Source: Candidatus Thorarchaeota archaeon
GTDB lineage: Archaea; Asgardarchaeota; Thorarchaeia; Thorarchaeales; Thorarchaeaceae
NCBI GenBank assembly: GCA_019057475.1
Contig: DXJO01000018.1
Location: forward strand, 32,001-96,000
Direction: 5' to 3'
Length of the DNA stretch: 64,000 bases
A program made the position numbers and the translations under genes. Under the pieces are notes generated by a model that saw only the letters and a list, made by a program, of their open reading frames with translations, was not told the origin of the DNA and searched no databases. How positions within the stretch are numbered: position 1 is the stretch's first letter; each line of letters starts with the position of its first letter. This document shows positions 12,787 to 30,469 of this stretch, piece by piece.

Positions 12787-13757
12787 CAGAACTCGTGCCT
12801 CCTCCAGCAAGCAACGCAGTGGCCATTCTCGCATTCAAGAGGTGGTACTTCCTGTCTACACCTGTCAACAGCGAAATCACACCTGGGATTGAATCTGCAA
12901 CCGCTTGGCGGATTAATGAGGTCCGGTGGATTTCCAGGAATGAAGTCTATCTCCTTATCGACTAGAATACTCGGAAATGATGAGATGAGTTTCTTCGTAT
13001 ACGGATGCTCAGGCATTGTGAAGATAGTATCAGTGCGGCCAGTTTCTACAATACGCCCTGCATACATTATGATGATTCTGTCACAAGTTTCAGCCAGAAC
13101 AGACAGGTCATGAGTAATCAGGAGGACTGATAGATTGGTCCTATCCCTCAACTGGTTAAAAAGGTCGAGAATCTGCGCTTGGACCATAACATCTAAAGCT
13201 GTCGTTGGCTCGTCCGCGATTATGATGGACGGATGGCAGACCAAAGCCAAAGCAATCATCAGGCGTTGCTTCATTCCACCGCTCAATTCATGGGGATATG
13301 AAGTGGCACGTGCAGGGTCGATTCCAACTGATTTGATCAACTCAAGCGAGCGCTCTTTCGCCTCCTGTTCTGTCACATCCTCGTGAATACGCAATGCAGT
13401 GATCATTTGGTCTATAGCCTTGTGGACTGGATTCAGAGCATTCATCGCTCCTTGGAATACCATGGAAATATCACGCCAACGAAGTGCTTCGACCTTTTTT
13501 GTATCATAGTCAAGTATGTTCTCGCCCTTGAATAGGATGACCCCTTCTTCCACCTTGCCCTCTTTGGGCAGCAAATGCATCAATGACAGCGCTGTAGTTG
13601 TCTTCCCGCAACCTGACTCGCCGCTCAGCCCTATGAACTCACCACGATGAATCCTGAAGCTAACATTCTCAGCTGCCTTCACTTTGCCCTGCTTGGTTTC
13701 GTAGGTGATTCGCAGGTTTTTCACCTCGAGGAAAACTTCGCGTTTTGTGTCAGCCAT
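12786..13757 (-). CDS. oppD: Oligopeptide/dipeptide ABC transporter ATPase (OppD/DppD)
   Basis: [35 protein letters not shown]. Confidence 0.92.
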
Positions 13758-13766
13758 GTCCTCGCA

Positions 13767-16523
13767 TCACCGCCTCCTCAATCGGGGGTTGGCAATCTCG
13801 TCCATGGCATATCCAAGCATGGAAACCCCCATCAACAGTAGAACCACCATGATTCCAGGTGGAAAGACCCACCACCAAAGATTCCCAGTCATTGCACCCG
13901 AGCCAAAGGCTTGGTATAACATTGTGCCCCAACTGACCATAGTTGGATCACCCAACCCAAAGAAATCAAGCACGACTTCAGAGAGAATCGCATAGGCTGT
14001 CACAAGAACTGTGTTGGCAACGATGAGCGGCGCTACTGCGGGGAGAATATGCTTAAACATGATGTAGGATTTGCTACCTCCGACCGCTCTTGCTCTCTCG
14101 ATGTAATCCCGCTCCTTAATTGTTAAAACCTGACCCCTTACTATGCGCGCAGTGGAAGGCCAAGAGAATATGCCTATGATAATAATCAACGAATAGACCG
14201 AAGGAGGAAGAATCGCACCAAGAATAATCATAATCACAAGACCAGGTATCACAAAGAAGATGTCGGTGAAACGCATCAAAAGCGAATCAGCAATGCCTCC
14301 ATAGTACCCCGCAAGCAGACCAATCATTCCTCCAATGAACATCGTAATCATTGTTGCGACTAGTCCGATGATGAGTGTGATGCGAACGCCGATGACAAGC
14401 TGACTGAATACATCTCGTCCAAGCTGGTCGGTACCCAAGAGATGGAACCCGGGAAAAGAGGTGGGATTGCCTGTAATTATCCACAATGAGGTCGTCATCA
14501 GAAGAGCAAGGCCCAAAGTCAGCATAGTCAAGCCGATAAGACGCTCCAAGGAGGGTCTCAACGCTGATTTTGTGATTTCTCTCAGTGCAGACCGCAAGTT
14601 GGGTAGTGCTAGAGCAAGACCTATCCCACCAAGCAAGAATGCACCTGCAGTGGCAAGAGAGCTTGCTCTAGCTAGCGAATGCGGAAGAAGGAGGATTGCA
14701 ACGTAAGCAAGAAAGGCTCCAATGAAAGCCCATTGAATTGAAGCAGAAATGTTTGGCCTATTACGATAGCTTGCGTACACCCACACCACGGCGCCTATCA
14801 CAAGGATAGCTAGACTGACATCTAGAAGAGCGGCTTGATCTAATGGTAGGGGTGTTGGGGGCTGTCGTGGTGTCCCTGTCAAATGGGCTGTGGGATCGTA
14901 TGGAGCAAGTATGTCTCCAAATATCGCGAGAGCAGCAAATGCGGAAACTGTTACTGCTCCAACAATGCCCATTTTGTTCCCTAGAATCTGCCTTACCATA
15001 GCGATTGTCTGCACCTGTCGATTCAGGAAGTAGCCATAAAGCCAGCCGGCCAATGATGTTATTGTAAGAAGAGGATGAGCGATGATGGAAGCTGACAACA
15101 TCAGGACATGTAACCAGCCCTCCAGCGATGACACGGGCGGAAACACGCTTGCGCCCACAAAGGTCGTGGCCCAAGATAGTACCCATTCCAGCCCATATGC
15201 GTTGGGCATCGCAAGTGCCACAATCATTACAATTGTGACAAACAGCACATTCAACGTTAGGACTAATTGCGATAGTCGAATAAGCAGCTGCGGCCGATGA
15301 TTCGTCCAGAGGTACGTCAGGTTCCCAGGTGAATAAAGCTTGGCTCTATTCCAAATGAACCTGAGGATATCTTGCCTTCGCACGAATACGAGGATGGCAA
15401 GTGTGCTAATCAGAAATAGTGCAGCATAAGAAGGTGCGAGGAGCAGAATAACAATGTCCAGGCACAGCAGCACTGTGGTTAAGTACGTGAAAGGGCGCAG
15501 AAACCACCCGAAAAACCCTCCCTTCTTCTCATCTGTGAGGGTGAACTCAGTTCCCACTCTGATTCGTGGGTCAAGCCAGTAGTACAGGAAATCAGCAGCA
15601 AGGTTGGCAAAGATCATAACCACAGTGATCACAAAGAATGTTCCCTGCAAAACGGGGTAATCCCTCCAAAGAATGCCGTCCCAGAGCAAACGTCCGATTC
15701 CGGGATATGAGAAAATGACCTCCACTTGAAGTGCACCAGCTACCGTGGCTCCGAGGTTCAGAGCTATGATAGTGGTTACAGGAATCATTGCATTTGGCAC
15801 GGCCTCTTTGTCCAGCTGATCCTTCTCAGTACGTCCTTTCGCTTTCGCTGTAATCATGTAGTCCTCACTAAGCACATCAAGCAGTGCATTTCTCATTATG
15901 AGCGCAAACACGCCAATCAAAGCTATTGTCAGTACACCCCAAGGTAAAATGAGTCGTCTGACGATTTCATAGGTAAAAAGTAAGGGATTACTAACGAAAT
16001 CTATGTTTGGGATAATTGCTGTTATCGGGAACCATCCAAGATTGACTGCGAACAGCATGATGAAGAACATAGAGAGGAAAAACGACGGAATGGAATAGGT
16101 CAGCAATGAGATGATTAGTCCAACGGCATCAGCACGCTCACCCCGTTTCCATGCAGAATGCTTTCCAATGTAGATGCCGATTGCTATGGAGGCAATGGTC
16201 GCAGGTAGAATGAGTAGCAGTGTATTGAGCAAACGGTGAAGTATCAATATTCCAACATCTGTCTGATATCGAAATGAGATACCGAAGTTACCTGTCAGGA
16301 AGTTGACAATGAATAGAAAAAACTGCTCAGGAAGCGGCTTGTCCAAGCCAAACGCTATGATGATTTGCTCCTGCGCAGCTTCAGGGATATTCGGGTTTCT
16401 GGCTAGGAATGTGGCAGGATCTCCCGGAAGCATATGGAAGAAGATGAAGTCGATAGCCAGTGCAATGAATATAGTAACAATGGCTTGTACGACTCTTTTC
16501 GCCAGTGTTCCTCTTAGACCCAA
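13767..16523 (-). CDS. Fused OppB-OppC ABC permease with extra TM segments
   Basis: N-half OppB (LPGDP, FGLDKPL, EDYMITAKAKG, DPRIR); C-half OppC (LLGTDQLGRD, DYIERARAVGG, NPRLR); 918 aa single ORF. Confidence 0.88.
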   Translation of the reverse strand: MGLRGTLAKRVVQAIVTIFIALAIDFIFFHMLPGDPATFLARNPNIPEAAQEQIIIAFGLDKPLPEQFFLFIVNFLTGNFGISFRYQTDVGILILHRLLNTLLLILPATIASIAIGIYIGKHSAWKRGERADAVGLIISLLTYSIPSFFLSMFFIMLFAVNLGWFPITAIIPNIDFVSNPLLFTYEIVRRLILPWGVLTIALIGVFALIMRNALLDVLSEDYMITAKAKGRTEKDQLDKEAVPNAMIPVTTIIALNLGATVAGALQVEVIFSYPGIGRLLWDGILWRDYPVLQGTFFVITVVMIFANLAADFLYYWLDPRIRVGTEFTLTDEKKGGFFGWFLRPFTYLTTVLLCLDIVILLLAPSYAALFLISTLAILVFVRRQDILRFIWNRAKLYSPGNLTYLWTNHRPQLLIRLSQLVLTLNVLFVTIVMIVALAMPNAYGLEWVLSWATTFVGASVFPPVSSLEGWLHVLMLSASIIAHPLLTITSLAGWLYGYFLNRQVQTIAMVRQILGNKMGIVGAVTVSAFAALAIFGDILAPYDPTAHLTGTPRQPPTPLPLDQAALLDVSLAILVIGAVVWVYASYRNRPNISASIQWAFIGAFLAYVAILLLPHSLARASSLATAGAFLLGGIGLALALPNLRSALREITKSALRPSLERLIGLTMLTLGLALLMTTSLWIITGNPTSFPGFHLLGTDQLGRDVFSQLVIGVRITLIIGLVATMITMFIGGMIGLLAGYYGGIADSLLMRFTDIFFVIPGLVIMIILGAILPPSVYSLIIIIGIFSWPSTARIVRGQVLTIKERDYIERARAVGGSKSYIMFKHILPAVAPLIVANTVLVTAYAILSEVVLDFFGLGDPTMVSWGTMLYQAFGSGAMTGNLWWWVFPPGIMVVLLLMGVSMLGYAMDEIANPRLRRR

Positions 16524-16569
16524 AAAACCTCACCTTAAGTCCTGTGTACTACCAGTCTGCTAAAAAGAT

Positions 16570-16606
16570 TGGAAGGAACAGACAGATATTATGCCTGTTC
16601 CATCCA
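16570..16606 (-). terminator. Stem-loop between the SBP gene and the permease gene (possible attenuator or mRNA-stabilising hairpin)
   Basis: TGGAAGGAACAG...CTGTTCCATCCA, 12-bp stem with one mismatch, T-rich on both sides. Confidence 0.45.
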
Positions 16607-16624
16607 TTTTCTTGCTTTTTGATA

Positions 16625-18529
16625 TCAGCCTCTCCGTTTCATGTATACGATGCCTATGATCACGATTACAACCACAGCTATTCCAACGAGGGCAATCATC
16701 TCTATCGGGAACGCGGATGGCAAAAGGACATACACGTCAGCCTCAAGCCAAGACATCCAGTTCCAAATGGAAAAGATTCCTGATTCCCAGTCTGTATGAG
16801 CGAACTCCCATCTGTCGCTTCGATAGATTTCTAGGTCATTGAACTCCACAAGGATACAGACGCTGGCCTCATCATAGACAAGCTGCTGCATCTCATCGAT
16901 CAGGTCCTCACGTTCACTATCGTCAGCGAGCTTTTGCTCTGCATAGATTTCGTCTACGCGTGCAATGGAGAGTCCAGTCGGGTTAATCCAGCTCGGGGTT
17001 GTCATATACTGAGCGATGCTGTTGGGATCTGCTATCTGGGAATAGAACGTGACTGCCAGGTCGAAGTTTCGGCTACCCGCTGCGGTGTCAGTCACGAAGG
17101 TTGTTGTGTCAACTGCCTGAAGGGTTATGCCAAAGCCAGCAGCCTCAAGATCCGCCTCTATCAGTTGAACCATGCTCAGGTCAACCGGCGCGCCTGAAAC
17201 ATACTTCAAAGTAAACTCAAGAGCCTTGGTTGATCCATTGAGATCCTTTTCGTAGACCCCTCCGGTATTCTTAACCCAACCGTCCGCCTCAAGAGTTGCC
17301 ATCGCTTCAGCTGTACCAGCATCAAAGGTCACTAGTGCATTGTTGAACCATTTGAGTGTACTATGAACAACAGAGTCTGCAGGCTGAGCATGGTCCAGAT
17401 AGGCAATTTGAGCAATCTTTGTCTTGTTGATTGCCTGATTGATTGCCTTCTTGACCGAAAACTCACGCAACGCGAATTTGTCAGTCGTATTGCAGTAGTA
17501 CCAATCCTGGTCTATGAGTAGAGCTTCCCATCCAAGGAACGGGTTCTCATTGAGAGTAACTCCCTCAGTAGTTCCTAGAGACTCCAAGAATGGAGCTTCA
17601 GTTTCGCAGAAGTCGATTTCACCAGCCGCAAGAGCTTGTGTCATTGTTTCGATAGAGCTGTAGAACAGCACAGTAATGTTGTCGATGTTAGGGCGTCCCC
17701 ATTGATAGTCCTCATTTGCTTCAAGGAATGCGTACTCTCCGATTACGTACTCGGAAAGCTTGAACATGCCAGTGCCGACTTCTGGTGTGTCAAAGGTCGG
17801 TACAATAATGTTCCATGAGATTCCATCCCAGTTCAGGTAGTCCCAGTAGCCCCACGGGTCATAGCCGGTACCATTCAAACCCCACACGGGGTCGTTCCAT
17901 GTGATGGGGTCCCAGAGGTGCATCGGAAGTATTGGAACGTACGTAAGACCTGTAAGTAAGTACTCCTGGTTGACCTCGACAGGCGTACTATCGTATCGCT
18001 CATTCCAGTAATAGAAAGGAGCGCCAGCCATCCACGAATAGATGCTTGCGTACCCATTCTGCACGAAGTTAAGCACAACAGTATAGTCGTCAGGGCACTT
18101 GATGTTATAGTGATCGATGTGACCTGTTTGAGCTACCCACCAGCCCAACCATGTCCAAGTGAAGAGTGTCCAATTGACATCCGCTGACGTAAATGGAGTT
18201 CCGTCGTGCCATGTGGCATTCTGAACCAAATGCAAAGTCAGTTGAGTACCATTTTCAGCCCATTCCCAGGATTCTGCAAGGCCTCCCGTCACTCCCCAAT
18301 CATCATCCCAGCGCGTTAGCGGGTCATAGATCCAGTTGAAAAATTCCCATGAGGCTATGCTTCCCGCAAGAATTGGGTTCAGGTAGTCGGGCTCACCAAA
18401 CATACCCAGTTTGAATGGCTTTCCTGTTTCTTCTTCTTGCGCAACCACTTGCATCGGCGTATTGGCTAATACGGGTAGAACCATGGCCAGAACAAGAAGT
18501 AACGCGAGAATGTATTTTCGTCTTTTCAC
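16625..18529 (-). CDS. oppA: Family-5 ABC substrate-binding protein (OppA/DppA), C-terminal TM anchor
   Basis: LAESWE, WHDGTPFTSADV, VGTGMFKL; signal peptide after GTG 18529 (VKRRKYILALLL); C-terminal TM. Confidence 0.88.
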   Translation of the reverse strand: MKRRKYILALLLVLAMVLPVLANTPMQVVAQEEETGKPFKLGMFGEPDYLNPILAGSIASWEFFNWIYDPLTRWDDDWGVTGGLAESWEWAENGTQLTLHLVQNATWHDGTPFTSADVNWTLFTWTWLGWWVAQTGHIDHYNIKCPDDYTVVLNFVQNGYASIYSWMAGAPFYYWNERYDSTPVEVNQEYLLTGLTYVPILPMHLWDPITWNDPVWGLNGTGYDPWGYWDYLNWDGISWNIIVPTFDTPEVGTGMFKLSEYVIGEYAFLEANEDYQWGRPNIDNITVLFYSSIETMTQALAAGEIDFCETEAPFLESLGTTEGVTLNENPFLGWEALLIDQDWYYCNTTDKFALREFSVKKAINQAINKTKIAQIAYLDHAQPADSVVHSTLKWFNNALVTFDAGTAEAMATLEADGWVKNTGGVYEKDLNGSTKALEFTLKYVSGAPVDLSMVQLIEADLEAAGFGITLQAVDTTTFVTDTAAGSRNFDLAVTFYSQIADPNSIAQYMTTPSWINPTGLSIARVDEIYAEQKLADDSEREDLIDEMQQLVYDEASVCILVEFNDLEIYRSDRWEFAHTDWESGIFSIWNWMSWLEADVYVLLPSAFPIEMIALVGIAVVVIVIIGIVYMKRRG

Positions 18530-18569: not shown

Positions 18570-18616
18570 TGTACAATGATTAAAATCCACCGAACAACAG
18601 TGAACAACCATGAACA
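18570..18616 (-). promoter_or_regulatory. Four-box operator/promoter of the opp operon
   Basis: On the - strand: TGTTCA (18616), TGTTCA (18606), TGTTCG (18596), TTTTAAT TATA-like, TGTACA (18575); offsets 0/10/20/41. Confidence 0.75.
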
Positions 18617-18626
18617 TGGCTAGGCA

Positions 18627-19601
18627 TCATCGCTTCTTTACGCGGTACACAGCTAATGCCACGATGACAAGCAATGTAGCCGCAATGGCAACTGACTGTT
18701 CAAATGACAATCCCAACGTTGGAGGTGGAGTGGTTGATGATTCGAAACCCTCCACTAGCCACAGGGAGACCTTCATCATCATATCCCATTCGGAGCCCTG
18801 GTCATCAAACTCATTCTCCCAAATGCTGTTATCTCTCTGAGAGTCCTCCTCCCACTCTGGGTGAGGTCCAGAAAGGAACACGCGGCCAGAGTCGTATTCA
18901 AATGCGACCATTGCAGACTGGTTATTGACCGAGAATGTCGCCAGCGTGTGAATCCCATTTTGGCTCTCGCTTTCGAAGTAGGGTCCACCGTAGTACATGA
19001 CTGAATGCGTGGAGGGCTCTCCAGAGAAGTCGATGATATCCGAACTATGATTCACACTTATCTCGCACATATCGTAGTTTGGCCAGCTAGCAATCTCCTC
19101 GATTGAACCCACTCCCGTACCATCGAAGAGGTCAAGTGAATAATCATGGGTTGTTCCTTCCCAGGTGATCTTATCACAGGCAAAGTAAGCTCCAGCACAC
19201 ACACCAAAGAATGCGCCTCCCTCCCTCACAAACCGTCTAATCTCCGCAATTCCAATAGAGCCCAATTCATTGTTGTAGGTGACCGCCCAACCGCCCGGGA
19301 TGACTACCATGTCGTAGTTCGACAGTTTTCCGTCAATGATGTCTGAGGCATAGAGCAGGTCTGTACTTGCATTCATCCACTGAAACATGAATGTCAACGC
19401 GTTTCTACTACTCTGACTTGATGATTGGTCACCAAAGTAGACAGCCACGCTTACCCCTGAAAGGTCGATCCGATTAGCTGGTGTTTGGGCTTGAGTATTA
19501 GTGGCTAGAGTAAGAATGAACATTACTACAACTGCAAGTGCGACAAATGAGCGATAAGTTCTTGTGATGGCTTCAAGCTTCATTGAGAACCGACCGGACA
19601 T
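18627..19601 (-). CDS. BPL_N / class-I GATase-like domain protein, secreted and C-terminally anchored
   Basis: IPGG, GVCAGAYFAC, YYGGPYF, SGPHPE (Cys-His-Glu triad); signal peptide and C-terminal TM. Confidence 0.8.
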   Translation of the reverse strand: MSGRFSMKLEAITRTYRSFVALAVVVMFILTLATNTQAQTPANRIDLSGVSVAVYFGDQSSSQSSRNALTFMFQWMNASTDLLYASDIIDGKLSNYDMVVIPGGWAVTYNNELGSIGIAEIRRFVREGGAFFGVCAGAYFACDKITWEGTTHDYSLDLFDGTGVGSIEEIASWPNYDMCEISVNHSSDIIDFSGEPSTHSVMYYGGPYFESESQNGIHTLATFSVNNQSAMVAFEYDSGRVFLSGPHPEWEEDSQRDNSIWENEFDDQGSEWDMMMKVSLWLVEGFESSTTPPPTLGLSFEQSVAIAATLLVIVALAVYRVKKR

Positions 19602-19660
19602 ATTGATTGCAGTCGCGTACTAATCTAGCCTTATTGCTCTTTAGCAATGCGCAGCACTCT

Positions 19661-19707
19661 TGTTCAATCGTGAACACGGATGTTAGCACTCTTCATATCA
19701 TTGTTCA
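19661..19707 (+). promoter_or_regulatory. Four-box operator/promoter of the aminotransferase operon
   Basis: TGTTCA 19661, TGAACA 19671, TGTTAG 19681, TGTTCA 19702 (0/10/20/41). Confidence 0.78.
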
Positions 19708-19788
19708 TATCAAATACAGTACAGCCTGATATCAGTACTTCTTCAAACGGGTCTGGATGAAAAGAACCCCTATAGGAGTTGTCAAAGA

Positions 19789-21084
19789 ATGGTTGACGCC
19801 AAGGAAATCATGAAGAAAGACAAAGAGTACCTAGCAGCAGTCTATTCTCGTAAGCCAATCGTTGTATACGAAGGAAAGGGCGCAATTGTCAAGGATCTTG
19901 AAGGGCGAGAATATATCGATTGTTTGAGCGGCATCTCAGTTGTAAATGCCGGACATACGCCTGAACGCTTAGTGAGAGCAGGAACTGAGCAAATGAGAAG
20001 ACTCTGGCATTGCTCTGGCCTGTATTACAGCGTTCCTCAGACACTGCTTGCGGAAAAATTGGCCAGCATTGCACCGGGCGCACTCAGGAAATCTTTCTTC
20101 TGCAACAGTGGTGCTGAGGCGGTTGAGGGGGCTGTCAAGCTAGCAAAGAAGTTCGCGATATCTGAAGGTCGTACTGGAGCAGGTGTCATTGCCCTTGAGG
20201 GCTCATTCCACGGCAGACTTGCCTTATCTCTGACTTTGACCGGTCAAGCCAAGTACAAGAAAGGATTCGGGACATTCGCCAACCACCCGGGAGTTGTACA
20301 TGCTCCAGCACCCTATTGCTATCGATGTCCTCTGTCATATCCTGATTGTGGCGTTGAGTGTGCACGGAAGGTCGAGGACATCATCAAATACCACACAACT
20401 GGCGATGTAGCGGCGATGATAGTGGAACCAGTGATGGGTGAGGGAGGGATCATTGTACCGCCTGATGGATATCATGCAGAATTGCAGAAGATATGTCACG
20501 ACCATGAAATCCTCTTCATTGCGGATGAAGTGCAGACTGGCTTTGGCAGAACTGGCAAGATGTTTGCAAGTGACTTTTGGGACATCAAGCCCGATATTAT
20601 GACAATGGCGAAGGGGCTGGGGGCTGGCCTACCCATAGGCGCTGTGATGTATACTGATGAGATTGTGAGATGTTTGGTGTCAGGGGACCACTTCTCGACA
20701 TTTGGCGGAAATCCTGTTTGCTGTGCTGTTGCGCTGGAAAACATAGCATATTTGCAGGAAGAAGGGCTCTTGACCAATTCCAAGCATATTGGGAAGCTGC
20801 TCATGGAAGAGCTGCTATCCTTACAGCAGAAAAACGACATGATTGGAGATATCCGAGGAAAGGGGCTCATGATTGGCGTAGAGCTCGTGAAAGATAAGAC
20901 TTCCAAGAAACCCGCTGTTGAGCAGACAAAGAAGGTTGCAAAGGAAATGTTCAACAACAACATCCTGATAGGCACAGGTGGGGTCCACAGCAATGTCCTA
21001 CGCATACAGCCTCCGCTTTGCCTTTCAGACGAACAGGCCAAGAAAGTGTTGGACCTCCTAAAGGAGCAGCTGGGGGATCTCTAG
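19789..21084 (+). CDS. Class-III PLP aminotransferase (GabT/ArgD-like)
   Basis: NSGAEAVE, SFHGR, EPVMGEGG, ADEVQTGFGRTG, MAKGLG, STFGGNP. Confidence 0.93.
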   Translation: MVDAKEIMKKDKEYLAAVYSRKPIVVYEGKGAIVKDLEGREYIDCLSGISVVNAGHTPERLVRAGTEQMRRLWHCSGLYYSVPQTLLAEKLASIAPGALRKSFFCNSGAEAVEGAVKLAKKFAISEGRTGAGVIALEGSFHGRLALSLTLTGQAKYKKGFGTFANHPGVVHAPAPYCYRCPLSYPDCGVECARKVEDIIKYHTTGDVAAMIVEPVMGEGGIIVPPDGYHAELQKICHDHEILFIADEVQTGFGRTGKMFASDFWDIKPDIMTMAKGLGAGLPIGAVMYTDEIVRCLVSGDHFSTFGGNPVCCAVALENIAYLQEEGLLTNSKHIGKLLMEELLSLQQKNDMIGDIRGKGLMIGVELVKDKTSKKPAVEQTKKVAKEMFNNNILIGTGGVHSNVLRIQPPLCLSDEQAKKVLDLLKEQLGDL

Positions 21085-21111
21085 GGATCACCAAGACTTG
21101 GAGGCTTTGAG

Positions 21112-22884
21112 GTGGAAAAGACTTCGATTAACCGCATCGAGGATACAATCAGGGGGCTTTGTCAGTTCGAGAATAGGATAGCCGGGTCCAAGAATGAAGC
21201 GCGTGCTGCGGAGTTCCTCATCAAACGTCTTCAAAGTTGTGGCATTCAGGATGTCAAAGAAAGCTCATTCTCTGTAATCAGCTGGAAACCCGTGAACTGC
21301 CAAGTCATGATTATTGAACCGCTTCGGCGAAAGATTGAGGCTGCACTCTTCCCTTGCTCTCCAAGCGCAGAAAGCAATGGCAATCTGATGGCAATCGATC
21401 AAACGTCCAATGAAACACTGAACAACGGGAGCCAGATAGGCCTTTCGCCTTGGGGTAAGCTGCTGTATCAATCAGTCACGACCGCCTATCATCAGGCTGT
21501 GAAACTCGGGCTTGAAGCAGTCCTGATTTCCGCACCCGATGATGGCGACCTGAGGAAGGTTGTAATCGTTGATTCTGGAGGGTCTTTGAAAATACCAGTG
21601 ATCAGCATCTCAAAGGAAGACGCGTCTTTTCTTTCAGACCTGATGGGGAGCTCGAAAGTTGTTCTTGAAGTAAGAACTGAAGTCGATGTGGACCCTGAGG
21701 CCCAGTCCAAGAATCTGGAAGTCGTAATCGAAGGAAACAAAGAATCTGAGCACGAGATTTGCATAGGGGCGCACTATGATGCTTGGTTCAAGGGCGCGGC
21801 TGACAACGCTGCACCAGTAGCTGTTGTCCTCGAACTCGCCCACCTTCTGAATGAATATGTCGTTAATGGAGGATCCCTGCTCAGAACTGTTAGGTTTCTA
21901 TTCTTTGGGGCTGAAGAGAGCGGATCAACGTCCTTCTATTACTGGATCAATGGCTCCAAAGCCTATGTAGCAGCCAACAAGGATACTGTGATCAAGACCG
22001 CGGCAATGCTCAGTTTGGATTCAATCGGATTCCCCCCTCCTGCTCCAAACAGTATCGGAGCTACTGGGGGTCTTCTTGCATTCGCTAAGAGCATTCAAGC
22101 TGGCCATGGAAATGCTTCCAATGTCACGTTCTTTGGTCCACCCGGATACGGAAGCGATCACTGGTTCTTCGAGATATCCGGCGTTCCAACAATTTACGGT
22201 CTAGCTTTTCCAAGCAAATTCTACCATACACAGAAAGACGACCCTGACAATTTGGACTACGACGGTGTGCATTTTCACGCGGAGTTCATGCGGAGCGCGC
22301 TATTCACCTTGGCAAATGCGCCTTTGTTGCCTCTCGACATGTTTGGTTCCTTGACGGAAATCGAGCGGATACTCACGCATTACAATGAGATGAAGGATTG
22401 TCCTTTTGATACAGCAAGTGTGGTGGCTAAAATTAAGCAGATTTGGGGCAAGAAGAAAGCCTTTGAGAAGGCTGCAAAATCCGCAATCGCCGCCAATAAC
22501 ACGAAGCTACTGGAAAAGATGAACCGGTTCCATGTGTTGACTGCTCGTACATGCAACCGTACAATAGGACGGACTCTGCGAAGCTCATCTTCTTCCGGTG
22601 TTAGCTATTTGGCAAGATTGGAATTGATTGCAGATTATATGGAAATCCGCGCAGCCGTCAACAGGTTAAAACAGATGCCAATCGCAAATCTAGCAAATGA
22701 AACAATCAAGAGACTTGAATCACAAGAAGACAACCCATTCAGCTGGGTTTCGATTCATGAACCGTTGGGAACCCTTGAGAAAGAAGCAGCTCGGATATCA
22801 CGTGTGGTGGAAAACGAGCTCACTAACCTGTTAGAAGCAATCGATGCTATTTGGCAAGATATGGAAGAACTAGTATCAGAATAG
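21112..22884 (+). CDS. M28-family metallo-hydrolase with PA-like domain (paralogue A)
   Basis: GAHYD, GAADN, GAEE, SLDS, GSDH, YHT metal-ligand motifs; no signal peptide. Confidence 0.85.
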   Translation: MEKTSINRIEDTIRGLCQFENRIAGSKNEARAAEFLIKRLQSCGIQDVKESSFSVISWKPVNCQVMIIEPLRRKIEAALFPCSPSAESNGNLMAIDQTSNETLNNGSQIGLSPWGKLLYQSVTTAYHQAVKLGLEAVLISAPDDGDLRKVVIVDSGGSLKIPVISISKEDASFLSDLMGSSKVVLEVRTEVDVDPEAQSKNLEVVIEGNKESEHEICIGAHYDAWFKGAADNAAPVAVVLELAHLLNEYVVNGGSLLRTVRFLFFGAEESGSTSFYYWINGSKAYVAANKDTVIKTAAMLSLDSIGFPPPAPNSIGATGGLLAFAKSIQAGHGNASNVTFFGPPGYGSDHWFFEISGVPTIYGLAFPSKFYHTQKDDPDNLDYDGVHFHAEFMRSALFTLANAPLLPLDMFGSLTEIERILTHYNEMKDCPFDTASVVAKIKQIWGKKKAFEKAAKSAIAANNTKLLEKMNRFHVLTARTCNRTIGRTLRSSSSSGVSYLARLELIADYMEIRAAVNRLKQMPIANLANETIKRLESQEDNPFSWVSIHEPLGTLEKEAARISRVVENELTNLLEAIDAIWQDMEELVSE

Positions 22885-22902
22885 GAAAATGGAGGAATCA
22901 GA

Positions 22903-23793
22903 GTGGCAAGAAAACTGGGTGTGGCTGGTCTTCAGTTGAAGAAAGACTTTAGCGACGCAGAGTCCAATATCATCAAATTCGAAACTATGACACGAACAGC
23001 AAAGGCGTCATATCCATGGGTGGATCTAATTTTCACTGGTGAACTATACCTTCAACAGTATGGAACCAAAGATTGGAAGGATTTCGCTGAGCCCATCCCA
23101 AATACTTTGACTGATCGACTATCGCGTCTTGCTAAGAGAACTCATTGCTGGTTGGTTCCTGGCTCCTTTCTCGAGCGAGACGGTTCGCGAATCTTCAATA
23201 CCTCGATTGCGTTCAATCCAGACGGGGAGATAGTAGTGAAGTACAGGAAGATTTTCCCATGGGCTCCACACGAAGATACGGATCAAGGTACCGAGTTCAT
23301 CACATTCGACATCCCCGGAATAGCAAGAGTAGGCATGACCATTTGCTACGATTTATGGTTCCCAGAGTTGTTCAGGACACTTGCATGGATGGGATCTGAA
23401 GTCATTCTGCAGCCGTCTGCGACATACACCCCTGATAGGGACGCCGAGTTGATTCTAACGCCAGCTCAGGCCATCATGCACCAATGCTATATTCTCAATG
23501 TGAACACAATCAGTCCTCACGGAGGAGGACGGTCGATGTTTGCAGATCCAGAAGGGTATGTTATCCAGAAGACTGGCACTCACGAGGAAATGATGATTGA
23601 GGTCATTGATATAGACAAGGTTGCATGGATCCGACAACATGGTTCCTTCGCACTCAACCCGGTTTGGAAGAGCTTCAGGGACTCGCCCTTGAACGGGAAA
23701 TTCCCGCCGTATGAGAATCTACAAGACGGCGAGATACTCAAGACACTCGGGGAAATGAAGCTTCAGAAGAGTATCAGAGATTGGGACGTTTAG
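22903..23793 (+). CDS. Carbon-nitrogen hydrolase (nitrilase superfamily)
   Basis: Glu-Lys-Cys triad: FTGEL, YRKIFPW, ICYDLWFPE. Confidence 0.9.
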   Translation: MARKLGVAGLQLKKDFSDAESNIIKFETMTRTAKASYPWVDLIFTGELYLQQYGTKDWKDFAEPIPNTLTDRLSRLAKRTHCWLVPGSFLERDGSRIFNTSIAFNPDGEIVVKYRKIFPWAPHEDTDQGTEFITFDIPGIARVGMTICYDLWFPELFRTLAWMGSEVILQPSATYTPDRDAELILTPAQAIMHQCYILNVNTISPHGGGRSMFADPEGYVIQKTGTHEEMMIEVIDIDKVAWIRQHGSFALNPVWKSFRDSPLNGKFPPYENLQDGEILKTLGEMKLQKSIRDWDV

Positions 23794-23811
23794 ACCCGGG
23801 AGACAGCTAAC

Positions 23812-25101
23812 ATGTCAGATAAGGGTGAAGTAGTTAAGGAGTGGATACGAGAGCATAGCGACTCGCTAATCACTCTGACTCAAGAACTAGTTCGCATCCC
23901 CAGCATCACCGGACACGAGTTTAATGTTCAGGAATACATCCTGAAGCGCTTAGATCGCCTAGGTCTCGAGCCATGGATGGTTCTGCCAGATGTCGATGTT
24001 TTAAGAAAGGACGCCGACTTCTTTGAAACATCGTCTTTCGTCAAGTATGGATACGAGAACCGACCCAACGTTGCCGGCATCCTTAAGGGGTCCGGCAATG
24101 GCCGGTCGATATGTCTTAGCGGGCACGTTGACGTTGTATCCCCAGAGCCCGTTGGCCAGTGGTCCTATGACCCTTGGTCTGGTGAAGTTGACGACGGGAT
24201 GATCTATGGTCGAGGGGCAGGCGATATGAAGGCAGGTATCGCCGCCATGATTATCGCATTGGAGGCAATCAGGAGGGCCGACGTCAAGCTAAAGGGCGAT
24301 GTTCATGTGGAAACGACAATTGAAGAAGAGGATGGTGGAGTAGGCGGCAATCTCTACATGAGACTGACGCAACCACGAACGGATGGTGCGATAAACCCCG
24401 AACCAACCAGCCTACAGATTGGCATGGCTAGTGCAGGAGTCATGTACTTTAGGGTAATTTCCTTCGGCGTCCCAGCCCATGCTGCCACTGCGCACTTTGG
24501 AGTCAACGCAATACACAAGATGCTTCCCCTCATTGAGGCGCTTCGAACTCTAAATGAAAGGAGACAACAGAGAATCTCCTATGCTTATGCCGAAGCTATG
24601 AGTCCTAGGATGAAAGGGCGAGTGACCACAATCAACATAGGAGTTGTTAGGGCGGGCGATTGGCCCTCAACAGTTCCAGGGACATGTGAGATAGAATGCA
24701 GAATAGGCTGGCCGCCCGGGGAAACCCGGGAGGAAGTGATGAGTGAAGTTGAAGAGTGCATAACAAACGCATATCAGAATGACTCATGGCTCCGCGACCA
24801 TCCTCCCAAGGTGGAGTGGTTCGGATGGCGGGCAAGGCCCCACGAGCAAGACGTCCAAGATCCGTTTGTCCTTTGCATAAGAAACCAAATTGCAAAGGCG
24901 ACTAAGAAAAGCCCAGTCCTGTACGGAGGTTCAGCAGGCCTTGATACGCGATTTTTCGTGAACCATGGCACTCCGGCTGTGACATTCGGACCTGCCGCGC
25001 AAAGAATTCATTCGTTTGATGAATGCGTGAGCATTGAGTCAATTGTGACGACAGCTGAAGTGATAGCTGCAACGATAATGGACTGGTGTGGTGTGGCCTA
25101 A
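23812..25101 (+). CDS. M20A/ArgE-DapE family amidohydrolase
   Basis: LSGHVDVV, GRGAGDMKAG, EEE, PEPT, IHSFDE. Confidence 0.9.
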   Translation: MSDKGEVVKEWIREHSDSLITLTQELVRIPSITGHEFNVQEYILKRLDRLGLEPWMVLPDVDVLRKDADFFETSSFVKYGYENRPNVAGILKGSGNGRSICLSGHVDVVSPEPVGQWSYDPWSGEVDDGMIYGRGAGDMKAGIAAMIIALEAIRRADVKLKGDVHVETTIEEEDGGVGGNLYMRLTQPRTDGAINPEPTSLQIGMASAGVMYFRVISFGVPAHAATAHFGVNAIHKMLPLIEALRTLNERRQQRISYAYAEAMSPRMKGRVTTINIGVVRAGDWPSTVPGTCEIECRIGWPPGETREEVMSEVEECITNAYQNDSWLRDHPPKVEWFGWRARPHEQDVQDPFVLCIRNQIAKATKKSPVLYGGSAGLDTRFFVNHGTPAVTFGPAAQRIHSFDECVSIESIVTTAEVIAATIMDWCGVA

Positions 25102-25152
25102 TTTCGCTAATCGCAGAAACACCTGTTCCTGGAAACTGCAGACTTTTCGCTC

Positions 25153-26928
25153 TTACATTCCAACTATCTTCGACATGCCTTTGGAGATTCCACTGAGGAG
25201 GTCCGAAAGGTTGGATAGTTCCTTCTCTATCTGTTGGAACACTCTGGATCTTTCTTGTTCCAGCTTCGCAAGGGGCTCATGAATCCTAATCCAGTTGTAG
25301 GGATTCTCCTTCTGCACTTCAAGTTTGGCGACAGAGTGATGCCCTATGTTCGCAATTGGCATGCCACGCAGAGCGCTAATTGCTCGGCTTAGGTCAACAT
25401 AATCGGCAATCATTTCCAAGCGAGAAAGATAGTCTACATCGTCAGGAGCCTTTTGCCGCCAGATCCAACCGATTGTTCTGTTAAGCGAGTTTGCAGTGGA
25501 AAGCAGGAACTCATTGATTGCCGCAATTCCGTTTGAGTCACTTTTCTCACTCACATCCTTTAGGGATTTCAAGAACTTCTGTTTCATTCCCGCAATCCGG
25601 TCCAGCTTCTTTAGGAGTGGTGCTAAGTCAAATGGACTATCCGTTCTTCTGCTATGTTCAAACAGAATTCCACGGAATCGCTCCAGAAGCGGGAAGATGT
25701 CAATTGGCAGCAAATCTGCGTTTGCTAGGCTGAGCAATGCCTTCCTAATGAACTCAGCAAAGAAGTGGACTGCTTGATAGTCCAAGTTCTCAGGACTGTC
25801 CTCTTGCGTGTGATACAACGGACTCGGGAATGACACACCGTACACTGAAGGGACACCGGAGATTTCAAAGAACCAGTGGTCACTACCATACGCTGGGGGA
25901 TCGTAGTAGTCTACTCGCGAAGCAATCTTTGAGCCGACTTTCAGATTCCTAACAAAATCAAGGAGTCCAGTCGTAGCAGCAATGTAGTTCTTAGCAGGAG
26001 TTGGATAGCCCACTGAATCCAACGATAAGAAGGAAGCGGCTTTCTTAACTATATCTTGGTTTTCCCTGACGAATGCTTTTGACCCGTTGCACCAGTAGTA
26101 GAAGTCCATAGAGCCGCTCTCCTCAGCCCCAAAGAATAGGAACCTAACCGTTCTCTTGAGCTCTCCTTCGTTTTGCCTATACTCATGAAGGAGCCTTGCG
26201 GTTTCGAGAACTATCGCCGCAGAAGCTGAATTGTCAGCGGCTCCTTGGAACCATGCGTCATAGTGGGCACCAATCAGAATCTCGTGGTCTGATGAGCCGT
26301 TGCCCGCCACTGTGACCATAAGATTGCGCGACCGTGCTTTCGCGGACCAGTCAACCTCTGTACGCAACTCAACGACAACATCATCCGACTCCAAAAGGTC
26401 GAAGAGAAACTCGCCATCTTCCTTGGATATGTTAATCATTGGTATCTTCAGAAGACTGCCTGAAGATATGACAACAACCTTGTGCAGATTGCCGTCATCA
26501 GGAGAGGAAACAATCAAGCCTTTGGCATCCTGATCTAAGGCATGGAAGTAGGCTCTCATCGGTCCAAGGTAAAGCTCTGTTCCCCACCTAACTAGACCAA
26601 TCGTGTCGCTATCTTTCTCTAGGATTCCGGAGTTGATTTGGTGAAAGGGCGCAAGTCGTCCCTTTATTTCTGCACCTTGTGAGTGGGGGAACACAACTGC
26701 CTTGATGTCCTTGCGAACCGGCTTGATGACCTTGAGTTGGCAATGTGTAGGTTGCCACCGATGAACCTCGAACTTACTCTCCTTGATTTTGGTGATTCCG
26801 AAGCTGGCAAGTCGGCTTTTGATGTATTCCGCAGCCTTCGCTTCACTCTCGGTCCCTGCAATCTTGTTTCCTATGGCACTAAGACCTTCAACGGTTTTCC
26901 TAATTTCGTCGATAGACGTCGGTTCCAA
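25153..26928 (-). CDS. M28-family metallo-hydrolase with PA-like domain (paralogue B)
   Basis: Same motifs as paralogue A; TTG start at 26928 after GGAGG aligns with the start of paralogue A. Confidence 0.85.
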   Translation of the reverse strand: MEPTSIDEIRKTVEGLSAIGNKIAGTESEAKAAEYIKSRLASFGITKIKESKFEVHRWQPTHCQLKVIKPVRKDIKAVVFPHSQGAEIKGRLAPFHQINSGILEKDSDTIGLVRWGTELYLGPMRAYFHALDQDAKGLIVSSPDDGNLHKVVVISSGSLLKIPMINISKEDGEFLFDLLESDDVVVELRTEVDWSAKARSRNLMVTVAGNGSSDHEILIGAHYDAWFQGAADNSASAAIVLETARLLHEYRQNEGELKRTVRFLFFGAEESGSMDFYYWCNGSKAFVRENQDIVKKAASFLSLDSVGYPTPAKNYIAATTGLLDFVRNLKVGSKIASRVDYYDPPAYGSDHWFFEISGVPSVYGVSFPSPLYHTQEDSPENLDYQAVHFFAEFIRKALLSLANADLLPIDIFPLLERFRGILFEHSRRTDSPFDLAPLLKKLDRIAGMKQKFLKSLKDVSEKSDSNGIAAINEFLLSTANSLNRTIGWIWRQKAPDDVDYLSRLEMIADYVDLSRAISALRGMPIANIGHHSVAKLEVQKENPYNWIRIHEPLAKLEQERSRVFQQIEKELSNLSDLLSGISKGMSKIVGM

Positions 26929-27047
26929 AGGTTCTCCTCCTCGCTCGTGGCGAGTCCAACTAGTGATGCGAGCTCTTCCAAAGCTAAACAGCATGGGATC
27001 TCACATGACACTTCACGATTAGCGCACTATGCTGTACTACATGCTTA

Positions 27048-27094
27048 TGAACAACGATATGAAATATGCTAACATCCGTGTTCATGATTGTACA
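27048..27094 (-). promoter_or_regulatory. Four-box operator/promoter of M28 paralogue B
   Basis: On the - strand: TGTACA (27094), TGAACA (27084), TGTTAG (27074), TGTTCA (27053); offsets 0/10/20/41. Confidence 0.78.
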
Positions 27095-27112
27095 AGAGCG
27101 TACGCTTCAAGT

Positions 27113-27159
27113 TGTTCAAGTCTGTTCAAGAGTGTTAGGTTTCTTTTTCTACATGTTCA
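27113..27159 (+). promoter_or_regulatory. Four-box operator/promoter of the corrinoid protein-mtmB operon
   Basis: TGTTCA 27113, TGTTCA 27123, TGTTAG 27133, TGTTCA 27154 (0/10/20/41). Confidence 0.78.
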
Positions 27160-27200: not shown

Positions 27201-27848
27201 ATGAATGACTCCGTCAATAAGCTAAAGGAAGCTGTTATCAAAGGTGACTACAAAAACACCCCTGACCTCGCCAGAGAAGCTCTCGAGGCAGGTGTATCCC
27301 CTATTGAGGTTCTTAAGAAAGGGATTACAGACGCGGCTACGATTGTAGGGGATCAGTTTGAGCGGATGGAGATATACCTCCCGGAGCTGATGATGTCAGG
27401 AAAAGCAATGATGGCAGGCATTGATGTCATTCTACCCAGGATTTCGTCTAGCGATGATGTAATCAAGGGCAGGGTCGTTGTTGGAACTGCGCTAGGAGAT
27501 GTACACGAGATTGGCAAGAACATTCTCAAGGTTCTGCTAATCGCTAGTGGTTTCGAGGTAAGCGACCTGGGAGTGAATGTTCCCACTTCCAAGTTTATTC
27601 AGGAAGCAGAGAGAATCAACGCAGACATAATTGCAATATCTGCCCTGATGACTTCCACACTGGGAGGACAGAAAGATGTCATCGATTATCTGCGAGAAAC
27701 AGGGAAACGTGACAAATACATCATAATGGTGGGTGGAGGTCCGACCAACAAGCAGTGGGCAGACACGATAGGTGCCGATGGCTTTGCAGAATCAGCTCCT
27801 GATGCAGTCAGGGAGGCAATTAGGTTGATCGAAGAACGGAGGGGATAG
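27201..27848 (+). CDS. Methyltransferase cognate corrinoid protein (MtmC/MtbC/MttC family)
   Basis: B12-binding DVHEIG (DxHxxG), SALMTST, MVGGGP, IGADG. Confidence 0.93.
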   Translation: MNDSVNKLKEAVIKGDYKNTPDLAREALEAGVSPIEVLKKGITDAATIVGDQFERMEIYLPELMMSGKAMMAGIDVILPRISSSDDVIKGRVVVGTALGDVHEIGKNILKVLLIASGFEVSDLGVNVPTSKFIQEAERINADIIAISALMTSTLGGQKDVIDYLRETGKRDKYIIMVGGGPTNKQWADTIGADGFAESAPDAVREAIRLIEERRG

Positions 27849-27850
27849 AT

Positions 27851-29230
27851 ATGCTGCCTGTCATAGAGATAACAAAGCGGTGTCTTGAAGGAACACCATG
27901 CCTTGAGAGTGACTTTGACCTAGAGATTTTCGCACCTAGAGTCAGAGAGCTTGTCAAGGAATATGGCATAGCATATGACACTGATGTCATTGTGCCCTCA
28001 GACAACGGATTGGCGGACTCGGTGTTCAAGGCTGCCGTGGAATTGGTTGTTGATGTGGGGATGTTCTGCAAGGATACAGAGCGGATTGTCAAGTTTGAAG
28101 AGCAGGAGGTCCGGAAAGCAATCAAGACCGCTCAACGAGAAACCACCTTCGGTGAAGGCGAGGAACGGAGAACACTGCGCTCACGAACTCCAGAATCCAA
28201 GGACCACCCGTGGATATTCGCGGGAGCAGGAGGGGTGACAGTATCAAATGAAAACATCTTCATGCGACTTGTTGAAAACTATGCCAGAATGATACCGAAA
28301 GCCAATGCCATCACAACACCCTGTCTGCTTGAGGTGGATGGAATGAGCATTCGGGCGCGTTCGCCTCTTGAGATTGTGGGTTCAATTCGAACTGTGATGC
28401 TTGGCCGCGAAGCATTGCGAAGGGCGGAACGGCCAGGACTTCCCATTATGAATGGAATAAGCACTGCTGAATCGGCAGTTGCTCTTATCTCCGGATTGCA
28501 TCCTGATTTTGGGCTCAGAAAGTCAGACGGGTATATGATCTCCCTGTTAGCTGAGCTGAAGACAGACTTTGACCTGCTTAATCGTGCTGCACTGCTTCAA
28601 TCCATTGATGTCCCAATAGCCGGGATCTACGGGCCCATATTCGGTGGTTTCGCAGGTGGGGCTGAAGGGACTGCAATAGCATCGGTCGCGTTTCACATCC
28701 TAGCCATGCTCGCATATCGTGCTTCTTGGACCCTTTGTTTCCCCATCCATATCAAACACATTTCAAGCTCATCTCCTGAACTCATCTGGACCGCTAGTGT
28801 GTACTCACAAGCGGTTTCCAGAAACACTGAACTACCTGCGTTGTACTACCCCTACACCGCCGCAGGACCATGCACGGACATGGTTCTTCGGGAATTTGCC
28901 GCCCAGTTCATTGCGGCCATATCTTCAGGAGTTTCAATAGAAACAGGAGGCGTGGCGAAAGGAAAGTATTTCGACTATCTCACGCCGATTGAACCAATGT
29001 TCGGTTCAGAGGTTGCGTACGCAGCAGCAGGTCTAAAACGATCTGATGCAGATGATATGGTCAAAGAGCTACTATCCAGGTTCATAGAAAAAATCCCGAA
29101 CCCGCCGAAAGGGAGCAGGTTTCAAGAGTGCTGTGACCAGACAACAGGTAAGCCTTCAAAGAAGTGTTTCAGCATATACAAGAAGGTGAGGGATGAGGTC
29201 TCGGACCTCGGAATCGAGTTCTCCAGCTAG
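27851..29230 (+). CDS. mtmB: Monomethylamine:corrinoid methyltransferase (MtmB) homologue, pyrrolysine-free
   Basis: Collinear with Methanosarcina MtmB as recalled (DTERIVKF, RPG, ELKTD, PIFGGFAGG, AGPCT, AKG, FQEC, DLG); no in-frame TAG. Confidence 0.88.
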   Translation: MLPVIEITKRCLEGTPCLESDFDLEIFAPRVRELVKEYGIAYDTDVIVPSDNGLADSVFKAAVELVVDVGMFCKDTERIVKFEEQEVRKAIKTAQRETTFGEGEERRTLRSRTPESKDHPWIFAGAGGVTVSNENIFMRLVENYARMIPKANAITTPCLLEVDGMSIRARSPLEIVGSIRTVMLGREALRRAERPGLPIMNGISTAESAVALISGLHPDFGLRKSDGYMISLLAELKTDFDLLNRAALLQSIDVPIAGIYGPIFGGFAGGAEGTAIASVAFHILAMLAYRASWTLCFPIHIKHISSSSPELIWTASVYSQAVSRNTELPALYYPYTAAGPCTDMVLREFAAQFIAAISSGVSIETGGVAKGKYFDYLTPIEPMFGSEVAYAAAGLKRSDADDMVKELLSRFIEKIPNPPKGSRFQECCDQTTGKPSKKCFSIYKKVRDEVSDLGIEFSS

Positions 29231-30413: not shown

Positions 30414-30469
30414 GAACACACTCACCGATTCATGTTCAAGATGGCTCCTCTTAATGTGGCATGTGAACA
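30413..30469 (-). promoter_or_regulatory. TGTTCA/TGAACA boxes at the regulator's own 5' end (possible autoregulation)
   Basis: Boxes at 30464-30469, 30433-30438 and 30413-30418. Confidence 0.55.

Follow-up and report, generated by a model that had tools for sequence, protein, structure and literature searches.

A phased four-box promoter motif in a Thorarchaeota gene cluster and its candidate ribbon-helix-helix-like regulator

The stretch of DNA analysed here (the window) comprises 64,000 nucleotides (nt) of the genome of a Candidatus Thorarchaeota archaeon (contig DXJO01000018.1 of assembly GCA_019057475.1, positions 32,001 to 96,000 of the forward strand), and contains four promoters that carry the same array of four 6-bp boxes related to TGTTCA. 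It appears fairly probable that these four sites are the operators of a 380-amino-acid (aa) protein encoded in the same cluster (29271..30413, minus strand), which is predicted to bind them through a ribbon-helix-helix (RHH)-like N-terminus and to act as an autoregulated repressor that is released by a ligand. All coordinates below are positions of the window, and its own genome (3.34 Mb in 56 contigs, 96% complete) is referred to as G000.

The four-box sites and their conservation

The four sites were confirmed base for base when the sequence was re-read, and the box quartets and their offsets are present exactly as the first-pass annotation of this DNA had claimed. Each site is 47 nt long, with boxes starting at offsets 0, 10, 20 and 41. 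Operator 1 (18616 down to 18570, minus strand), in the promoter of an oppA-type binding-protein gene and its ABC transporter operon, reads TGTTCA/TGTTCA/TGTTCG/TGTACA, with boxes at 18616-18611, 18606-18601, 18596-18591 and 18575-18570. Operator 2 (19661-19707, plus strand; boxes starting at 19661, 19671, 19681 and 19702) lies in the promoter of a class-III aminotransferase operon and reads TGTTCA/TGAACA/TGTTAG/TGTTCA. The promoter of M28 peptidase B contains operator 3 (27094 down to 27048, minus strand; boxes at 27094-27089, 27084-27079, 27074-27069 and 27053-27048), with the sequence TGTACA/TGAACA/TGTTAG/TGTTCA, and operator 4 (27113-27159, plus strand; boxes starting at 27113, 27123, 27133 and 27154), with TGTTCA/TGTTCA/TGTTAG/TGTTCA, stands before a gene pair for a corrinoid protein and an MtmB-like methyltransferase. 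A distance of about 41 nt from box 4 to the start codon had been noted for oppA and the corrinoid gene, and the measured values are 40 and 41 nt (ATG at 27201 for the latter). The value of 40 nt follows from the real oppA start codon, the GTG at 18529, in front of which GGATGTGA closely resembles the archaeal Shine-Dalgarno sequence. The corresponding distances are 81 nt at the aminotransferase and 53 nt at M28 peptidase B.

A motif search of the whole of G000 indicated that the pattern is not common at random positions. The degenerate pattern derived from the four sites returned four matches without mismatch, none with one to three mismatches, one with four and seven with five, which leaves the four sites as the only ones up to three mismatches. 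For its generalised form (TGWWCA-N4-TGWWCA-N4-TGTT-N17-TGTWCA), base composition predicts 1.6e-5 occurrences per genome, and a reversed-pattern control gave no match in 61 genomes and in 86 related genomes. Because the pattern had been defined post hoc from these four sites, a weight matrix built from 20 non-redundant sites of other genomes only was used as a fairer test. When G000 was scanned with this matrix, the four window sites ranked first to fourth at 37-54 bits, and the fifth-ranked position scored -1.9 bits, a gap of 39 bits. Sub-matrices for boxes 1-3 and for box 3, gap and box 4 found nothing else clearly above background in G000, and the spacing statistics of TGWWCA revealed no further cluster of phased boxes there. 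Judged from these scans, the regulon in G000 would be a single locus with five promoters, the fifth being that of the candidate regulator itself, and not one spread over the genome.

The comparison was extended to 86 genomes of the same Thorarchaeota family, with one mismatch allowed in the pattern. This yielded 59 sites in 21 genomes, spread over 6 of the 16 genera. Downstream DNA was fetched for each site, and all 59 were found to lie upstream of, and to point at, an orthologue of one of five gene kinds, namely the class-III aminotransferase (20 sites), the corrinoid protein (16), the M28 peptidase (15), the OppA-type binding protein (7) and the CN-hydrolase (1). The suggestion of a new archaeal regulon in the first-pass annotation is borne out by this exclusive placement, but has to be narrowed to the one five-promoter locus as far as the window's genome is concerned. 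Gene order varies between genera, and the sites track the heads of transcription units; in genome G098, which is a single contig, 1.38 Mb separate the corrinoid site and the regulator gene from the aminotransferase and M28 sites. Both observations argue that the sites answer to something acting in trans.

The spacings of 10, 10 and 21 are unchanged in all 59 sites. Box 1 is TGTTCA in 49 of them and TGTACA in 7; box 2 is divided between TGTTCA (22), TGTACA (21) and TGAACA (16); box 3 reads TGTTGG (39), TGTTGC (12), TGTTAG (4) or TGTTCG (3); and box 4 is TGTTCA (52) or TGTACA (7). This usage points to a quasi-palindromic recognition unit, TG(T/A)(T/A)CA, with an invariant 5' TGT half, of which box 3 would be a deliberately imperfect copy. 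In the oppA promoters of two genomes (G029, L019 about 6887-6900; G030, L020 about 12930-12944), a fifth TGTTCA precedes a weakened box 1 (TGTCCA) by 10 nt, so the length of the array varies, as it does in met-box arrays.

One could argue that the sites are merely copies of one duplicated promoter, with boxes that have no selected function. The aminotransferase and M28 peptidase B promoters (19657-19710 and 27045-27098) are near-identical inverted copies over about 50 nt, spacers included, and the aminotransferase and M28 sites of genome G025 are likewise near-copies of each other, yet unlike the G000 pair. That the same two promoter classes form near-copies in each genome, and different ones, suggests repeated duplication or gene conversion inside each genome. 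Operators 1 and 4, however, share with operators 2 and 3 nothing but the boxes, and across genera the spacers have diverged whereas boxes and spacing are fixed; in 23 non-redundant sites, the mean information content is 1.76 bits at box positions and 0.53 bits in the spacers. We therefore regard an origin by duplication without function as scarcely credible.

The sole conserved spacer is the 15-nt gap between boxes 3 and 4; its consensus is tTtTtaT, and gap position 7 is always a T. A comparable element, YYTTWAWW, is found about 30-38 nt upstream of 15 tRNA genes of G000, after an A-rich stretch. The gap of the oppA promoter (ATTTTAAT, 18586-18579, minus strand) fits this element well, and relatives have the same boxes and TTTTAAT at their orthologous oppA promoters. 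Other gap elements (TCTTCATAT at 19690-19698, plus strand, in operator 2, as well as TTCTTAT and CTTTTCA) fit it less well. A T-rich gap with an invariant T and a likeness to the genome's own tRNA-promoter elements is in keeping with the earlier proposal that the boxes bracket a TATA box. If the gap is the TATA box, box 3 would cover the position of the transcription factor B recognition element (BRE) and box 4 would cover about -19 to -14. Transcription would then be predicted to start about 12-15 nt downstream of box 4, giving oppA and the corrinoid gene a leader of 25-28 nt with a Shine-Dalgarno-like element. The distance between box 4 and the start codon is kept in relatives, at about 38-42 nt for oppA and about 36-43 nt for 13 of 16 corrinoid genes.

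With the TATA region included in the motif, the sites might alternatively represent a special type of core promoter, read by a paralogue of the TATA-binding protein (TBP) or of transcription factor B (TFB) and needing no dedicated regulator. The genome does encode three TBPs (six TBP-domain matches), on contigs C50 and C40, with two of the genes close together on C40. A core-promoter type would not, however, be expected in only 21 of the 86 family genomes and always with the cluster; 6-bp quasi-palindromes at every helical turn are unlike TBP/TFB recognition, and boxes also occur downstream of the promoter, on the start codon of the regulator gene (see below). Such a reading is very improbable.

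A few further signals were set aside. The match with four mismatches on contig C28 and a match with one mismatch in genome G042 look like chance. Tandem TGTTCAC repeats on contigs C4 and C27 were rejected as relatives of the operators, their 11-nt spacing and 63-nt period constituting a different geometry. These repeats occupy two contig ends of G000 (C4:7330-7531 and C27:1-130), and each 63-nt unit holds three AGAATGTTCAC copies at 11-nt steps together with TTAACACGTTAACA; the repeat looks like an iteron-like or origin-like element that broke the assembly. No Rfam family was found between 18000 and 31000 of the window, and a scan for sigma-70 promoters and terminators, a bacterial model applied to an archaeal host, gave nothing above shuffled sequence.

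The candidate regulator and its link to the boxes

The 380-aa protein is the product of the only gene in the cluster that is annotated by Pfam and NCBIfam as neither an enzyme nor a transporter. It is encoded in 18 of the 86 family genomes, and all 18 contain the motif; the three genomes with the motif only are 62-87% complete. Its own promoter is the fifth of the locus. There, a candidate autoregulatory operator (30413..30469, minus strand) consists of TTA-TGTTCA (box at 30469-30464), N25, TGAACA (30438-30433), N14 and TGTTCA (30418-30413), that is, of three boxes at offsets 0, 31 and 51, the last of which overlaps the ATG. Fifteen of 17 regulator genes keep this arrangement (TTA-TGTTCA, N25, TGAACA, N14-15, TGTTCA-TG; spacings of 31/32 and 20/21), and a Shine-Dalgarno-like GAGGTGA or GGAAGTG stands just before the start-codon box. 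The regulator genes at L008 and L030 have two boxes 32 nt apart without an exact third box, and in one genus a further TGTACA lies 31 nt upstream. Spacings of 31 and of 20-21 also correspond to whole helical turns, and together with the constancy of 10/10/21 they substantiate the helical phasing that had been claimed for the boxes.

The strongest evidence for a connection between protein and boxes comes from distant paralogues. Genomes of another Asgard family (f12) encode a 650-aa paralogue of 20-24% identity, with a strand reading S-V-H-I-H-T-T-I and a GSC(E/D)DC segment that retains the CxxC motif of the regulator. In all 11 of these genomes (loci L079-L089, for example G047:C33:21714-21740), the sequence TGTACA-N15(ATTAATAAA)-TGTACA is found directly upstream of the paralogue's own gene; the gap, A(G/C)ATTAATAA(A/G), is a strong TATA box, and nine of the 11 genomes have a third TGTACA, 21 or 9 nt upstream. 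This 12-base pattern has only 4 stray matches in 19 genomes, with about 0.3 expected per genome, and no match in four genomes of the same genus that have no paralogue. A third group (f25; 515-534 aa, strand E-H-V-H-V-V-T-D) was checked in two genomes. In one, three TGAACA boxes lie upstream, with a 15-nt gap containing TTATAAAC between the last two; the other genome is less clear. The presence of the box-N15(TATA)-box arrangement on the paralogues' own promoters argues that it travels with the protein family and not with the catabolic genes. In G047, a glutamate-dehydrogenase-like gene adjoins the paralogue. A 534-aa distant relative of the regulator, P0054, has a C-terminal response-regulator receiver domain, and this branch may be wired to a two-component system.

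The regulator had no match in Pfam, NCBIfam or the sequences of solved structures at E-values up to 10. Its 38 close homologues all come from organisms named Thorarchaeota or Promethearchaeota and are all annotated as hypothetical, and a HMMER search over 1.84 billion representative sequences placed only 19 clusters in the family. The N-terminus is the most conserved part, with the segment R21-V-H-L/I-H-T-T27 followed by two helices and an invariant C66-x-x-C69. Within the segment, R21, H23, H25 and T27 show no variation among 28 homologues, and V22 and L/I24 stand between them; polar residues alternating along a strand, together with boxes of two-fold symmetry, would be consistent with recognition of the RHH type.

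An AlphaFold2 model of the monomer contains helices at residues 30-39 and 46-60, a long helical hairpin (70-129) and two α/β lobes within residues 140-370. Residues 1-27 have a predicted local distance difference test (pLDDT) value below 50 and do not appear as a strand, which is also how a strand formed only in the dimer would look. When residues 14-110 were modelled as a homodimer, a score of 0.47 was obtained, compared with 0.02 for the best of three controls. At least 76% of contacts are shared between the runs, and the pLDDT of the partner is at least 68. The closest contacts between the chains (25-25, 27-23, 27-22, 53-53, 56-56 and 53-56) describe an antiparallel ribbon with paired second helices, so that the modelled dimer has a likeness to RHH geometry. 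Among proteins with solved structures, 20 of 30 homodimers and 1 of 23 single-chain proteins attained the mark applied to such dimers; since RHH dimers are themselves among the solved structures, attaining it shows likeness and not binding. Membership of the RHH superfamily is thus suggested by models, not by sequence profiles. C66-x-x-C69 (codons 30207-30218) follows directly on the second helix, inside the modelled dimer interface; with four cysteines to each dimer, a metal or redox site is conceivable.

The C-terminal part of the protein resembles little that is known. A Foldseek search with the whole model gave no match at E ≤ 0.001, and residues 135-380 alone gave two weak ones (E = 4.7e-4 and 9e-4, with template-modelling (TM) scores of 0.17 and 0.32 on the query). 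VIA-align searches with the whole model and with residues 135-380 listed only helical hairpins and generic ferredoxin-like or two-layer α/β lobes, and the fold matches reached Z values up to 9.7 and TM values up to 0.58 on short designed proteins. As H-NOX and TRAPP entries appeared only at TM values of 0.1-0.3, we do not claim kinship of this region with V4R or H-NOX. In a language-model search for look-alikes, the nearest hits were clusters with PF27313 (AF_0136_C; score 0.93, 202 of 256 features shared), which is to be taken as a lead only; among the 19 HMMER clusters, none was identifiable as AF_0136.

Proposed mechanism and regulated genes

The mechanism that we favour is as follows. The N-terminal dimer would insert its two-stranded ribbon (R21 to T27 of each chain) into the major groove of one 6-bp box. 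As boxes 1-3 lie one helical turn apart and box 4 two turns further on, all bound dimers would be positioned on the same side of the DNA, where the helical hairpin and the C-terminal lobes probably tie them together and boxes 1 and 2 would add cooperative affinity. The array would then clamp the TATA element from both sides and repress transcription by keeping TBP/TFB or RNA polymerase off the promoter. Binding of a small molecule to the C-terminal region would detach the protein from the DNA, turning on together an Opp importer, two M28 peptidases, an aminotransferase/amidase/deacylase operon and the corrinoid and MtmB-like pair. The regulator would also repress its own gene, through the boxes at the TATA element, near the start site and on the start codon. 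The composition of the regulon, in which the importer and the peptidases are accompanied by a deacylase, an amidase, an aminotransferase, a corrinoid protein and a pyrrolysine-free MtmB, leads us to suppose that the ligand is probably an amine or peptide imported in N-methylated or N-acylated form, or a product of its degradation.

Several observations weigh against the part assigned here to the 380-aa protein. Co-occurrence with the motif is weak evidence by itself and would fit any gene of the cluster, because the whole cluster is present or absent together. The N-terminal 75 residues have no Pfam match even at E = 10. The RHH_1 profile (PF01402) finds seven other genes in G000 and not the regulator, and when a profile of the regulator was compared with those seven, strand, helix A, loop and helix B were in register at a probability of only 5%. 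Fold searches detected no recognisable ligand-binding fold in the C-terminal region. Finally, boxes 1-3 are located where archaeal activators usually bind, and several of the regulated promoters combine an imperfect TATA-like element with the lack of a purine-rich BRE, so that activation is possible.

The first of these points would be accommodated if the operators are real and are read by another trans-acting factor encoded elsewhere, the 380-aa protein serving, for example, as a sensor or scaffold. Co-occurrence is common to every gene of the cluster, and sequence profiles assign the protein to no DNA-binding family. Against this, no other gene of the cluster lacks an enzyme or transporter annotation, the protein's own promoter has boxes, and the dimer model has RHH geometry. 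Moreover, distant paralogues in a different gene context have the same boxes with the same 21-bp spacing around a TATA element, almost only there in their genomes. We consider a separate factor improbable. The co-occurrence in 18 of 18 genomes, the boxes on the gene's own promoter, the symmetric dimer model and the paralogue promoters together favour the first-pass proposal of an RHH-type regulator at 29271-30413.

The sign of regulation requires separate consideration. The same protein could act on the same boxes as an activator or dual regulator, with dimers at boxes 1-3, in front of a weak TATA element that has no BRE, recruiting TBP/TFB when bound to ligand and autorepression being retained. 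Relative to the predicted start, boxes 1-3 would lie at about -60 to -38, where upstream activating sites such as those of Ptr2, TrmBL1 and BarR are usually found in archaea. Box 3 takes the place of the A-rich BRE seen at the tRNA promoters, and the TATA-like elements of the aminotransferase, M28 and corrinoid promoters (for example TTCATAT, TTCTTAT and CTTTTCA) are imperfect. Box 4, however, stands downstream of the TATA element, between it and the expected start, where a bound protein should block the polymerase. The oppA promoters retain a near-consensus TTTTAAT and should not need an activator. In the paralogues, the clamp encloses the strong TATA box ATTAATAAA at the gene's own promoter, an arrangement typical of repression; equally typical of it are the boxes on the 5' leader and start codon of the Thorarchaeota regulator gene, which by their position could only hinder transcription. 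Activation thus appears rather unlikely, and repression with release by a ligand is the mode of action that we infer.

The genes that this repression would control were identified with Pfam and NCBIfam and form four units besides the regulator gene. Unit 1 (11776..18529, minus strand) encodes the OppA-type binding protein (16625-18529), a fused OppBC permease (13767-16523), OppD (12786-13757) and OppF (11776-12834). In the permease, OppB-like and OppC-like halves are joined in a single chain of 918 aa, matching at residues 10-322 and 694-913, and the fusion is retained in relatives (about 920 aa). Unit 2 (19789..25101, plus strand) comprises the class-III aminotransferase, which according to profile matches is of the acetylornithine/GABA type, M28 peptidase A, a CN-hydrolase-family amidase and an ArgE/DapE-family M20 deacylase. 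M28 peptidase B forms unit 3 (25153..26994, minus strand). Unit 4 (27201..29230, plus strand) consists of the methyltransferase-cognate corrinoid protein (27201-27848) and the MtmB-family methyltransferase (27851-29230). The latter covers the whole Pfam profile (3-450 of 450) without an in-frame stop, and is thus a pyrrolysine-free homologue. A report of 2026 (PMC13044021) states in its title that a non-pyrrolysine MtmB homologue is needed in Methanococcoides for methanogenesis from tetramethylammonium and choline. A BPL_N/class-I glutamine-amidotransferase-like gene (18627..19601, minus strand) is divergent from operator 2. It always accompanies the cluster, and in genome G030 it is found in an operon behind a four-box site; boxes 1 and 2 of operator 2 could, from their position, also serve this gene.

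Relation to known regulators and significance

RHH repressors that act on tandem short repeats and archaeal repressors that mask the BRE or TATA element are textbook knowledge. The closest parallel among the former is MetJ of Escherichia coli, an RHH protein of about 105 aa whose dimers bind two to five tandem, abutting 8-bp met boxes cooperatively on one face of the DNA, with occupancy set by a small molecule. Short tandem repeats over a promoter, a variable number of boxes and a metabolic regulon are common to both systems, binding being a prediction in ours. The Thorarchaeota boxes differ in being 6 bp long and spaced at steps of 10 bp, which widen to 21 bp across the TATA element of an archaeal TBP/TFB promoter, and the candidate regulator has 380 aa; searches of solved structures and Pfam revealed no sequence similarity to MetJ. 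The omega repressor of pSM19035, CopG and Arc are RHH proteins whose dimers bind short repeats in direct or inverted orientation, which is reminiscent of the mixture of TGTTCA, TGTACA and TGAACA at box 2 (22, 21 and 16 of the 59 sites). The omega heptads, however, abut at 7-bp steps, and these are small proteins that bind no ligand and act on bacterial sigma-70 promoters.

NikR, which occurs in bacteria and archaea, combines an RHH domain with a C-terminal metal-binding tetramerisation domain, and in E. coli its half-sites are N16 apart. Boxes 3 and 4, like the paralogue boxes, are N15 apart, the sites overlap the promoter in both cases, and control by a ligand is proposed here as well. The C-terminal region of our candidate differs in having about 300 aa, with a hairpin and two α/β lobes, and there are four boxes instead of two. 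The protein has no sequence similarity to any solved chain, and no ACT-like or NikR entry was among the fold matches listed, which leaves kinship possible. In PutA, an RHH domain is fused to a large part that does not bind DNA and recognises GTTGCA sites in the put control region. A repeated 6-bp unit between divergent catabolic genes is thus found in both systems, but the PutA sites do not have the strict 10/10/21 phasing, and PutA is bacterial and itself an enzyme. The archaeal repressors TrmB/TrmBL1, Phr, MDR1, LrpA and NrpR overlap the BRE/TATA region or the start site, and the mechanism expected here, a block of TBP/TFB or polymerase relieved by a metabolite, is the same. They differ in that their domains are of the winged-helix or Lrp type and their sites consist of one or two longer palindromes; to our knowledge, no array of four phased 6-bp boxes around the TATA element has been reported for any of them, and none comes from an Asgard archaeon.

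What is new here is the protein family, the fixed 10/10/21 geometry around the TATA element, its recurrence in distant paralogues and the Asgard host. Full-text literature searches on Thorarchaeota, RHH proteins and Asgard regulons returned no description of the motif or of the regulator protein, and no sequence-specific regulator described together with its operator in Asgard archaea is known to us or came up in these searches. A broader and more tentative reading, which we think possible though open to considerable doubt, is that the protein represents an undescribed family of one-component regulators, so far known only from Asgard archaea, in which an RHH-like ribbon and a CxxC motif are combined with a helical hairpin and a new sensor of two lobes. 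The hallmark of such a family would be a clamp of two boxes, 21 bp apart from centre to centre and flanking the TATA element, that holds the DNA from one face so that TBP cannot bend it, with two extra upstream boxes in Thorarchaeota. There, a methylated amine or peptide would switch on import, hydrolysis and corrinoid-dependent demethylation by the pyrrolysine-free MtmB homologue.

The analysis provides a testable pairing of a 47-bp operator with 59 natural variants, a five-promoter regulon and a candidate regulator with at least 28 homologues, and two distant groups of paralogues use the same box and spacing. Both protein and DNA are open to study in vitro without culturing the organism. For the MtmB homologue, the genes that act with it are now defined, which narrows the search for the substrate of this enzyme. 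Asgard archaea are the closest prokaryotic relatives of eukaryotes and, if the TATA clamp is true, a bacterial-type RHH protein would control a eukaryote-like TBP/TFB promoter in a simple way.

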